Assembly (NCBI GenBank): GCA_951406725.2
Contig: OX597820.1
Span: 113,522,001-113,586,000 of the forward strand
Origin: Octopus vulgaris
Lineage: Eukaryota
Length of the DNA stretch: 64,000 nucleotides
Reading direction: 5' to 3'
Shown here piece by piece: positions 26,817 to 63,505 of the stretch. The notes below the pieces were generated by a model. The model ran no database searches. It was given only the letters and a program-made list of their open reading frames with translations, and was not told the DNA's origin. Every line of letters starts with the position of its first letter. The first letter of the stretch is position 1. The translations under genes and the position numbers were made by a program.

Positions 26817-27060
26817 TTGACTACCGAGTAATGTAACATATTGTATAGATATATATATATGTATATATATATATAAAGAGAGAGCGAGAGAGAGAGACAG
26901 TAAAGCTTATTTGCTTATTAAAGTGGTAGTCCTGATTAGGACGAATTTTACTGTTATTTAGCCCCAGGAAAGCATCGTCTCCAGCTGGCTGTCGGCACAC
27001 TAACTGCGTCCTTATATTTTCGAATAAGGGAACTAGTGTCCCCACTCAGCTCAAAGCAAT

Positions 27061-27107
27061 ATCTGTGTACCAATGGTTTCTAAGTTATTTCTCTTCATCA
27101 GTACAGA
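27061..27107 (-). ncRNA. Hammerhead motif, inverted partner of the 27965 copy
   Basis: Minus strand: ctgta CTGATGA agagaaataactta GAAAC CATTG GTA cacag. Confidence 0.6.
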
Positions 27108-27208
27108 ATAATCACTTGACTAGAGATGGCGACACTAGTTCTTGTTCGAAGTATATACTTTTCAATGTGACACACAGATTCTGATCTCATAAATAGAAAA
27201 ACTATTAC

Positions 27209-27406
27209 AGTTCTATATTTAAGAGATGAGGAATTATGTACATGTATTATTTACATTATTTACATTTGACGGATATTTGTCCTCATCTTGTTTGTTGTCA
27301 ACGCAACGTTTCGACTAATATACCCCCCAGCCTTCATCAGGTATCTCGGGGAAATTTCTAACCCTGGGTTTTCATTCCTAAGGTATTTTTTCAATGTTGC
27401 TGTTGT
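27209..27406 (-). mobile_element. Inverted 3' part of the tRNA-headed hammerhead SINE (hammerhead motif ~27296-27346)
   Basis: Reverse complement of 27540-27654 with an extra ~30-bp internal segment; CTGATGA aggctgg...ttagtc GAAAC GTT. Confidence 0.75.
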
Positions 27407-27418
27407 TCATATGCCCGT

Positions 27419-27489
27419 GGGCATATGGCGTAGTGGTTAAGAGCGCAGGCTACTAACCCCAAGATTTCGAGTTCGATTCGAAGCAGTAA

Positions 27490-27539
<50 letters not shown>

Positions 27540-27654
27540 GCAACAACATCGAAATTTCCCCAAGACACCTGATGAAGGCTGGAGGGTATATTAGCCGAAA
27601 CGTTGCGTTAACAACAAACAAGATGAGGACAAATATCCGTCAAATGTAAATAAT
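27419..27654 (+). mobile_element. tRNA-derived SINE-like element: Pol III head, (AAT)n linker, hammerhead motif (27564-27609) and tail
   Basis: A box tggcgtagtgg, B box gttcgattc; then gacac CTGATGA a GGCTGG agggtata TTAGCC GAAAC GTT gcgtt. Confidence 0.72.
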
Positions 27655-27964
27655 ATAGAAAAACTATTAGTTCTAAATTTCTGAGCGAGAAATATGCAGC
27701 AAAAGTACTCGAGTAAAGTTTATTTGCCAACGTAAAGTGGCAGTTCTGATTAAGAGGAATGTTACTGCTATTTAGCCCCAGGAAAGTACCAATGATTTTG
27801 GGGTTATTTCCCTTCACCAGCACAGAATAATCGCTTGGGATATTTCTCGTTCAGAGATTTAGAACAAAATTTTTTTGTATTTATGAGATCAGTGACTGTG
27901 TGTCATTTTGAAAAGTATATGCTTCGAACTAGAACTAGTGTCACCATCTCTAGCCAAGCGATTA

Positions 27965-28012
27965 ATCTGTGCTGATGAAGAGAAATAACCCAGAAACCAT
28001 TGGTACACAGAT
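27965..28012 (+). ncRNA. Type-I hammerhead motif with a 7-bp stem I
   Basis: atctgtg CTGATGA agagaaataaccca GAAAC CATTG GTA cacagat; a third degenerate copy at 27786-27825 (-) shows stem II as GGG/CCC. Confidence 0.72.
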
Positions 28013-28179
28013 ATTGTTTGACTATGAGAAGATGCTAATGACTGAAAGGAACAATGTTTTCGTTGATTAATCATCATTCCTCTTTTTTCCACTTCGAAGC
28101 AAGACTATGAAAGAAGACAGTGGCTTGTGATTATTTAGCCAGATATATCACAAAATTCTCACGTCCCACTGGTTGTTTT

Positions 28180-49467: not shown

Positions 49468-49501
49468 CATCATCATCGTCAATAATAATAATAATAATAA
49501 T

Positions 49502-49574
<73 letters not shown>

Positions 49575-49576
<2 letters not shown>

Positions 49577-50060
49577 GAGAGAAAGCAACCATACTCTGGG
49601 ATATGCCGATACACACAGACAGAGAAATTAAGGCCAACAGACCAGATATAGTTGTCAGAGATCATGAAGAAAAAAAATGCTTTTTAATTGATGTATCAAT
49701 ACCGGCAGATGACAACGTGTCTCTAAAAGAAATGGAGAAACTCTCAAAATACAAAGACCTGGAAATAGAGGTAACTAGAATGTGGAATCTGAAAACAGAA
49801 ACAATTCCTATCATAGTAGGTGCATTAGGCATGATAAAAAAATATTCAGACAAATACATAACAAAAACACCAGGACTTACAAACACATATAACATACAGA
49901 AAATTGCACTACTAGGCACTGCCCACATCCTACGCAGAACACTTTCCATACAATAACCATCAGAGCATCACAACAAATCACAGCACATACCCAAGGCACA
50001 CAGAGCTGCGCTCGGTAGTGAAGTGAAAGCACGCTATAAAAATAAAAATAAAACTACTGA
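49575..50060 (+). mobile_element. R4/Dong-clade LINE 3' end (open RLE endonuclease frame plus 3' UTR) inserted in (AAT)n
   Basis: ILWDMPIHTDREIKANRPDIVV...CFLIDVSIP...EKLSKYKDL...IIVGALG...IQKIALLGTAHILRRTL; (AAT)n at 49481-49574 and 50060-50155. Confidence 0.95.
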
Positions 50061-50087
50061 ATAATAATAATAATAATAATAATAATG

Positions 50088-50154
<67 letters not shown>

Positions 50155-50155
<1 letters not shown>

Positions 50156-62759: not shown

Positions 62760-63505
62760 CGAAATGGGTGGTCATATGGCTGGTCGTACTTCAGTTTTGT
62801 TTAATACTCAAACATTGTTACACATTAAATCTCTATGGGAAAGCGTCGTAGTATCAGCCCAGTTACTAGATGAAAGATCGTGTTGTTTCGTCACCAAAAT
62901 GTGTCCTTCGTGAATGTTAGCAAGCAATCAGGATGCAGCAAAATGGCTTGTGTTCAAGCATGGAAGCTTTATCACGCCACTGGCCAATCCAAAGATCGGC
63001 TAAGGACGGGCGCTCCAAGAAAAACAACAGTACAAATGGATCGGCGAATTCATAGGCTCTCTGAAGGTAACCAAATACTAATAGCAGTGGACATTTGCAA
63101 GCAATTATCTAATGAAACTGACATCAGATTTGTACCACAAACTGTCAGAAAGCACCTAAAAGAATTTGGACTGTTCGGCCAGATCGCTCGAAAGAACCCG
63201 AAAATTTTTGAGATGAACCGGCGGAAGCGGATCAAGTTTGCTAAAAGCCATTTTGAATGGACGGCCGAATACTGGTCAAAAGTTCTTTGGAGTGACGAAT
63301 CCTGCTTCTGCATCATTGGATCAGAAGGAAAGACTTATGTGAGACGCCGTCCAACTGAAGAATTCCATCTTAAGTGTGTCAAGAAAACGGCGCAAGCGGG
63401 AGTGGGGTAATGGTGTGGGCAATGGTGTCAAGGTTGATGGCAGACTGAACAATGTAAGCCATCTGCAATTAGTAAATGAAAATGTGCTGCCATATTTAAA
63501 TAATC
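62760..63505 (+). mobile_element. Tc1-like transposase remnant, truncated before the second catalytic D
   Basis: ORF 62880..63410: RTGAPRKTT..DRRI, TVRKHLKEFGL, RRKRIKFAK, WSKVLWSDESCF, YVRRRPTEEF. Confidence 0.92.

Follow-up and report, generated by a model that had tools for sequence, protein, structure and literature searches.

The present study identifies, with near certainty, a block of repeated sequence in a 64,000-nt stretch of the Octopus vulgaris genome (contig OX597820.1, positions 113,522,001 to 113,586,000; hereafter the window) as a head-to-head pLTR pair of a Penelope/Poseidon-type element, a pLTR-only insertion lying inside a single 15-bp target duplication. The pair belongs to an abundant, decayed Penelope, and its short copies probably derive from RNA that started at a tRNA-derived head, with RNA polymerase III (Pol III) the likelier enzyme. 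The first-pass annotation had read the block as a SINE, a reading that mostly fails because the unit of head, linker, hammerhead and tail is found behind the stop codon of a Penelope/Poseidon RT-endonuclease ORF.

The components that had been reported, i.e. a head with A and B boxes, an (AAT)n linker, a hammerhead and an inverted arm, were all located where claimed (Table 1). The inverted copy of the 3′ part, said to lie directly upstream, is present but longer than described, since it also holds the complete family middle, a 36-nt outer extension and 9 nt of the head. The forward arm ends at the upstream one of two 3′ ends that occur in the family. The 15-bp direct repeat, put forward earlier as a candidate target-site duplication, is exact, and an uninterrupted paralog of the interrupted host repeat (27840-28021, minus strand) matches both flanks and carries the 15-bp site once, so that the repeat is a true target duplication. 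The host repeat around the insertion (26900-27201 and 27670-28021) is made up of interleaved direct and inverted pieces of 54, 52 and 148 nt. Elsewhere in the window, positions 62874-63410 presumably hold a Tc1/mariner-like transposase fragment, judging by its motifs.

Table 1. Features of the insertion and its surroundings, in window coordinates.
Feature	Position	Strand	Basis
Older host repeat interrupted by the insertion, outside the element	27051..27192, resumes 27670-27695		89% to 27872-28021, 83% to 27840-27884 minus strand
Left target-site duplication	27193..27207	+	Exact 15-bp repeat and empty-site paralog; final 2 nt common with tail end
36-nt PLE tail on inverted arm, N-terminal codons of the PLE ORF	27206..27241	-	One-end tail statistics; in-frame joins in L347 and L349
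Inverted pLTR arm, middle and 3′ end complete, head and linker mostly deleted	27206..27418	-	112-nt arm pair 93% complementary; alignment
Damaged hammerhead of inverted arm (stems I and II)	27300..27345	-	Sequence; folds otherwise
Head-to-head junction, 9+2+9 palindrome, centre 2 nt before tRNA position 1	27408..27427		Recurs in 18/43 head starts
tRNA-derived head	27419..27495	+	tRNA spacing; best match tRNA-Arg(TCG); after ORF stop in 27/30 long copies
A box	27426-27436	+	At tRNA position 8
B box	27471-27479	+	At tRNA position 53
(AAT)n linker, then 32-nt deletion in the family middle of the forward arm, taking the family ATG (start codon)	27496..27550	+	Sequence, alignment
Minimal type I hammerhead, PLE type; predicted cut after 27604	27564..27609	+	Column counts over 78 copies; folding; PMC4209133 features
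PLE ORF coding start overlapping hammerhead; tail-less arm end	27565..27654	+	tblastn to P0004; 3′ end histogram
Right target-site duplication	27655..27669	+	Exact 15-bp repeat and empty-site paralog

The autonomous partner came into view at a random locus (L110) where the head lies directly behind the end of an ORF. Among 30 loci assembled at this ORF end, the query locus included, the head came next in 27, the body was present in 27 and both were present in 24, with an inverted 5′ arm upstream of the ORF in 19. When 30 loci, the window copy among them, were anchored on the head, 25 had a tail within 500 nt, which bears out the linkage that the first-pass annotation had asked to see; together the two sets of loci rule out chance adjacency of head and tail. 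The ORF codes for a reverse transcriptase (RT) and a GIY-YIG-like endonuclease. Its RT matches PF00078, the closest database proteins are 54–61% identical, and relatives carry PF00078, PF28514 and PF26215. The C-terminal domain aligns to an Anolis protein (P0045; E 1e-23) and to the PF01541-annotated P0108; the PF01541 profile itself gave no match in this domain, where the endonuclease motif reads YKGET. In an RT tree of 22 rows, where clades are named by proxy via Anolis and Schistosoma proteins, the partner groups with P0003-P0006 (96/97) on the Anolis and Schistosoma side and is separated from the Neptune-like families of the same genome (100/100). Its RT-EN linker lacks the extra Zn-finger motif seen in a 781-aa family of that genome (Neptune/Nematis type). 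ORF, tandem pLTRs, footprint and linker are all those of the EN+ Penelope/Poseidon clade.

Candidate partners were drawn from a GIY-YIG search with Pfam, in which 148 of the 150 scored among 6,136 candidates matched, and from a motif pattern (1,788 matches). Other PLE families, Neptune-like and more, were rejected as partners, their 3′ ends being without the shared unit. Many open 781-aa frames mark a young PLE family of Neptune-like type at L091, L092 (G000:C16) and many further places; its 3′ region is rich in CCAAT/TATA, its hammerhead is a U3-A8 variant and its 3′ ends lie in (TA)n. Among the 1,788 motif hits, the matches listed came mostly from another abundant GIY-YIG family (L167-L196), whose long pyrimidine-rich 3′ regions are unrelated to the unit. 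None of 46 pattern matches in viral contigs encoded a relative. No intact ORF was found in the 30 long copies of the partner that were scanned, the longest open frame being 343 aa, and copies lie 5–6% from the column majority; the family therefore looks dead. If the rate given in the accessible part of PMC13282606 applies, its age would be roughly 14–17 million years, CpG sites included.

The tail had been described as unique, a description that does not hold: it is common to the PLE ORF and encodes its start. With tblastn against a five-sequence database and composition correction off, residues 18-48 of P0004 aligned to window 27565-27654 at 58% identity with one stop. In a partial tandem (L347), the frame of a tailed pLTR stays open from its ATG, across the hammerhead and the tail, and on into the conserved N-terminus, with residues 18-130 of P0004, an intact relative, aligning at 37%, and L349 shows the same in-frame join of tail into ORF. 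Because the unit runs in frame into the ORF in tandems, hammerhead and tail are the first codons of the ORF; P0006 and a distant relative from a metagenome (L358) likewise read through their own hammerheads. The comparison of the tail with PLE pLTRs, recommended at the outset, accordingly assigns it to a pLTR that overlaps the ORF start. Such overlap with the first codons is known in Poseidon_Ac and Pen2a, according to the available text of PMC11167929 and PMC3846280. Near the tail-less end, a GTAAATAAT repeat (window 27645-27654, and family copies) varies in length by 9-nt units, and the reading frame is therefore kept.

Insertion footprints were compiled from 146 distinct insertions, 87 of them two-armed and 62 with both outer ends in the body. 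The tail of ~35 nt was found at one end in 55 of these 62, at neither end in 6 and at both ends in 1, and tail-less ends cluster ~35–45 nt upstream. Duplications of 9–18 bp flank 38 of the 55 one-tailed insertions (7/10 ORF-bearing, 31/45 others) versus 9 of 300 mismatched pairs. The PLE footprint known from the consulted portions of PMC11167929 and PMC3846280 comprises an inverted 5′ arm, an optional tail of 30–40 nt at one end and a short duplication. The linkage to the ORF and the footprint of one-end tail and duplication support the earlier proposal of mobilisation by Penelope-type machinery and not by a LINE. For Poseidon_Ac in vitro, the excerpts of PMC11167929 describe the tail as the stretch between two internal reverse-transcription start sites and uncut RNA as the template. 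Over 42 arm pairs, 10 private variants were common to both arms versus 3.7 expected, and paired arms agreed at 59/74 family polymorphisms versus 65% between loci. The two arms of one pair thus often, but not always, derive from a single template, and with agreement at only 59/74 sites a simple fold-back fails to explain all pairs.

The hammerhead of the forward arm was found as claimed, with a 6-bp stem II and a single stem I mismatch. It has the core CUGAUGA plus one extra A, a GUU site and no loop 3 (AACGUU palindrome), and stem I pairs at 4/5 positions; the stem I mismatch and a stem II wobble are private changes of the window copy. Column counts over 78 copies agree in every feature, a stem I of 4–5 bp included, with the PLE minimal hammerhead as outlined in the part of PMC4209133 at hand, i.e. 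a type I core, an extra base after position 9, a G10.1-C11.1 pair, a palindromic 15.2-16.2 and a stem I of 4–5 bp. The lowest-energy fold of the window copy differs from the ribozyme, stems I and II do form in an intact copy (L056), and folding energy is unexceptional (z -0.35 to 0.32). Cleavage is predicted to need a dimer or a protein. Hammerhead-cut RNA was rejected as the template, since none of 86 arms starts at the cut. RNA reads (6% of two runs from a related organism) came equally from both strands and showed no pile-up of starts or ends, the cut site included.

The A and B boxes of the head keep exact tRNA spacing. The best match among 8 tRNA types was tRNA-Arg(TCG), with z 7.8 for this copy and 10.4 for a second copy; the comparison set was harvested from 30 tRNA loci of the same genome and is incomplete, so that tRNA-Arg(TCG) is an uncertain candidate parent, the best of the 8 types compared. 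ARAGORN called no tRNA in the head, and Rfam called neither head nor hammerhead. Both boxes are intact in 9 of 25 decayed long copies. Seven tRNA-Cys-like genes are clustered within 3 kb at another locus (L322). As for the linker, a short LINE fragment with a restriction-like endonuclease, which we take to be Dong/R4-like, lies between two (AAT)n runs in the window (49481-50155), and the end of the same LINE lies upstream of the linker in two headless copies (L008 and L019); because the LINE end precedes the linker in these copies, the linker is a landing site for the LINE.

Copies of the element end sharply at the head. Among arms reaching the head start, 21/23 stop there, and 24/30 head-pattern loci start within ~10 nt of the head; five of the six run-on loci extend 180–890 nt, and three of these five are duplicates of one locus. 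The 43 head starts comprise 7 of ORF type, 18 fold-back palindromes and 18 other junctions, 36/43 stopping at the head, and at the 18 junctions without a palindrome the match to the source is 61–78% at -1 to -4 and 22–33% at -5 to -9. Copies that reach the head mostly end 2–8 nt upstream of it, ~30 nt behind a TATAAG that overlaps the stop codon and, for the majority of 11 long copies, lies at -34 to -29. In 4/4 runs, from two organisms, the fold-back junction at -7 is listed as a loose end. From this sharp 5′ edge, and a TATAAG suitably spaced for a start at -4 to -2, we infer the position of the RNA 5′ end. The tRNA-derived module at the repeat start likely marks the RNA start; a putative Pol III-type promoter is present there, and the whole element is likely read from it, possibly by Pol III.

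Some tRNA genes also carry upstream TATA boxes, and TATAAG at -34 to -29 would fit a Pol II start equally well; an Inr-like TCACT lies upstream of the head. An alternative explanation, which we consider unlikely, is a Pol II-driven Penelope in whose pLTR a tRNA or SINE inserted passively, the A/B boxes being idle and the edge reflecting either a start set by TATAAG or a stall or fold-back at the palindrome. Rotifer pLTRs have TATA/Inr promoters and 5′ palindromes in the available account (PMC3846280), and a short palindrome is present here too. In the distant relative L358, a TATA is kept 47 nt upstream of the hammerhead even though an A/B module is present, and the ORF start has two T4 runs. 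This alternative would not account for the exact tRNA spacing of the boxes, for copies that start at tRNA position -4 to +1, or for the same edge at the 18 junctions that have no palindrome. Moreover, the canonical pLTR TATA is missing: one lies 35–48 nt before the hammerhead in 8/11 relatives versus 1/25 copies of this family. Along the 2.7-kb unit, for which base shuffles expect ~6 shared T4 runs, the 13–16 aligned long copies have none that occurs in more than 2 of them, and shared T3 sites are extended in 0/14 cases versus 23/86 in four other PLE ORFs (Fisher p 0.035). Codon shuffles do not make the T4 absence significant (P 0.09–0.72 per segment), which suits a Pol II origin, and the signal is weak; 3 of 79 relatives have T4-free aligned spans of 1.4–2.3 kb and no A/B module, all three with T4 elsewhere in the unit. 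Pol III RNA lacks a cap, and translation from a Pol III transcript is therefore unexplained. Autonomous elements have been argued to require Pol II, in the portion of PMC10886601 consulted.

Nine insertions in 600 kb of evenly spaced stretches extrapolate to ~42,000 genome-wide (Poisson range 19,000–80,000). Exact 23-nt patterns gave 3,244 matches for the head start and 7,376 for the hammerhead, with 0 for reversed controls. Part of the unit is present in 20/24 listed runs from six organisms; among the runs listed in the run search, no RNA run held the unit. Short copies vastly outnumber long ones, with 2/86 arms entering the ORF (one of the three arm sets having been ranked by likeness to the window copy), they retain the internal promoter, and they are slightly less diverged than ORF-linked copies (median 5.1% versus 6.2%). 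These patterns could reflect a self-propagating Pol III SINE that arose from the pLTR, is transcribed alone and is copied in trans by the Penelope protein, which we regard as quite improbable. A comparison of 51 short with 27 ORF-linked copies, sampled from the ~42,000, gave 14 polymorphic columns and none that was diagnostic (lowest uncorrected p 0.046), and the three polymorphisms outside CpG sites are distributed in the same way among short and ORF-linked copies. In addition, as reported in the accessible text of PMC11167929, a template of the anole element has to include ORF sequence past the tail (first 172 nt, starts at 111-118); should this also apply to the present family, short copies would lack that sequence. 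The short copies are thus read as apparent products of the same sources as the ORF-bearing copies. The independent Pol III SINE of the first-pass annotation finds no support, given that the autonomous element carries the whole unit (24/30) and that no short-only variant was seen.

Under the preferred reading, in which short copies come from Penelope RNA that starts at the head, a tRNA or SINE probably inserted first, gave rise to the head and took over the promoter slot. By extension from the anole Poseidon, the element protein would nick AT-rich DNA and reverse transcription would begin on uncut RNA at two fixed sites within the ORF start, so that one end carries the tail and the other does not. 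Synthesis begun in the transcript's first repeat would run out of template at the 5′ end of the RNA, located at the head, after ~290 nt and leave SINE-like copies, while synthesis begun in the second repeat would leave ORF-bearing, 5′-truncated copies.

Two octopus tRNA SINEs, OR1 and OR2, were reportedly described by Ohshima and Okada in 1994. They are similar to the present family in being abundant repeats with a tRNA-derived head, and differ, by description only, in that this unit has no room for a CORE domain, because the head and (AAT)n are followed by PLE coding sequence. Both are named as CORE SINEs in the passages available from PMC4758252 and PMC4824008. A close likeness is to Poseidon_Ac and Pen2a (PMC11167929, PMC3846280, as far as their available text goes), which share an RT then GIY-YIG ORF, a pLTR over its first codons, a hammerhead at the ORF start, an optional tail of 30–40 nt, an inverted arm, a duplication and a junction palindrome. 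Unlike Pen2a, for which the same part of PMC3846280 gives a TATA/Inr promoter, the stretch from stop to ATG here is almost all tRNA-derived A/B module plus (AAT)n. The analogy with the schistosome Sm-alpha repeat drawn in the first-pass annotation holds for the layout, in that Sm-alpha and Sj-alpha have a Pol III-type promoter and then a type I hammerhead (PMC6765202, PMC8490949, in the parts consulted), but fails for the ribozyme, whose cut does not set copy ends in this family. Those repeats are tandem, with ribozyme-cut monomers and no partner described in the same excerpts, whereas this family consists of dispersed inverted pairs over an uncut site and has a partner carrying the same unit. 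Copies are head-to-head or single and do not form head-to-tail arrays of retrozyme type. Animal non-LTR retrozymes resemble the short copies in being non-coding, hammerhead-bearing and related to PLE pLTRs, and differ in forming tandem arrays and circular RNAs; the portions at hand mention no head derived from a tRNA (10.64898/2026.07.22.740005, PMC7761336). A small-RNA-derived Pol III promoter within a terminal repeat is also found in the TRIMp3 elements Cassandra, Helenus and Ajax, where it is proposed to stem from a SINE insertion; these are LTR elements that carry PBS and PPT and are not autonomous, whereas here the element is a PLE and the module sits in the autonomous form (PMC10886601, available part). 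In the literature covered, with repeat databases and most subscription papers outside its scope, no PLE with a tRNA-derived pLTR was found, and the family may already stand in Repbase, Dfam or SINEBase under some name.

A comparable arrangement was seen in the metagenome contig L358, which has an intact ORF with 38% identity to P0004 and is not sister to this family in the tree. Of 11 relatives in which the interval from stop to hammerhead is defined, it is the one with an A/B pair there (0/3,000 shuffles). Its module best matches tRNA-Arg(TCG) (z 5.1) and is followed by AAT repeats; L358:2757-3000 holds a tRNA-like stretch ending in CCA, the AAT repeats and an ATG directly before the hammerhead core, and a TATAAG was noted by eye ~30 nt upstream of the module. 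We put forward as tentative, and on balance doubtful, the fuller possibility of an autonomous Penelope transcribed by Pol III over 2.7 kb from a captured tRNA promoter, with T4 purged from its ORF and translation without a cap, possibly via a hammerhead-made circle that rejoins the ORF where it is cut in its first codons; the tRNA-promoter design would then recur in L358 and may explain repeats of Sm-alpha type.

On these findings, tens of thousands of repeats that look like SINEs belong to a Penelope element, a reassignment that bears on repeat annotation in genomes said to have SINEs as a major class. Thousands of natural insertions map both reverse-transcription starts and the RNA 5′ end, and so offer a test of the 2024 in vitro model of PLE insertion. 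If the head does work as a Pol III promoter, a retrotransposon that codes for protein would go against the expectation of a need for Pol II in autonomous elements, and this would raise the questions of uncapped translation and of what a hammerhead does within the start of a coding sequence.
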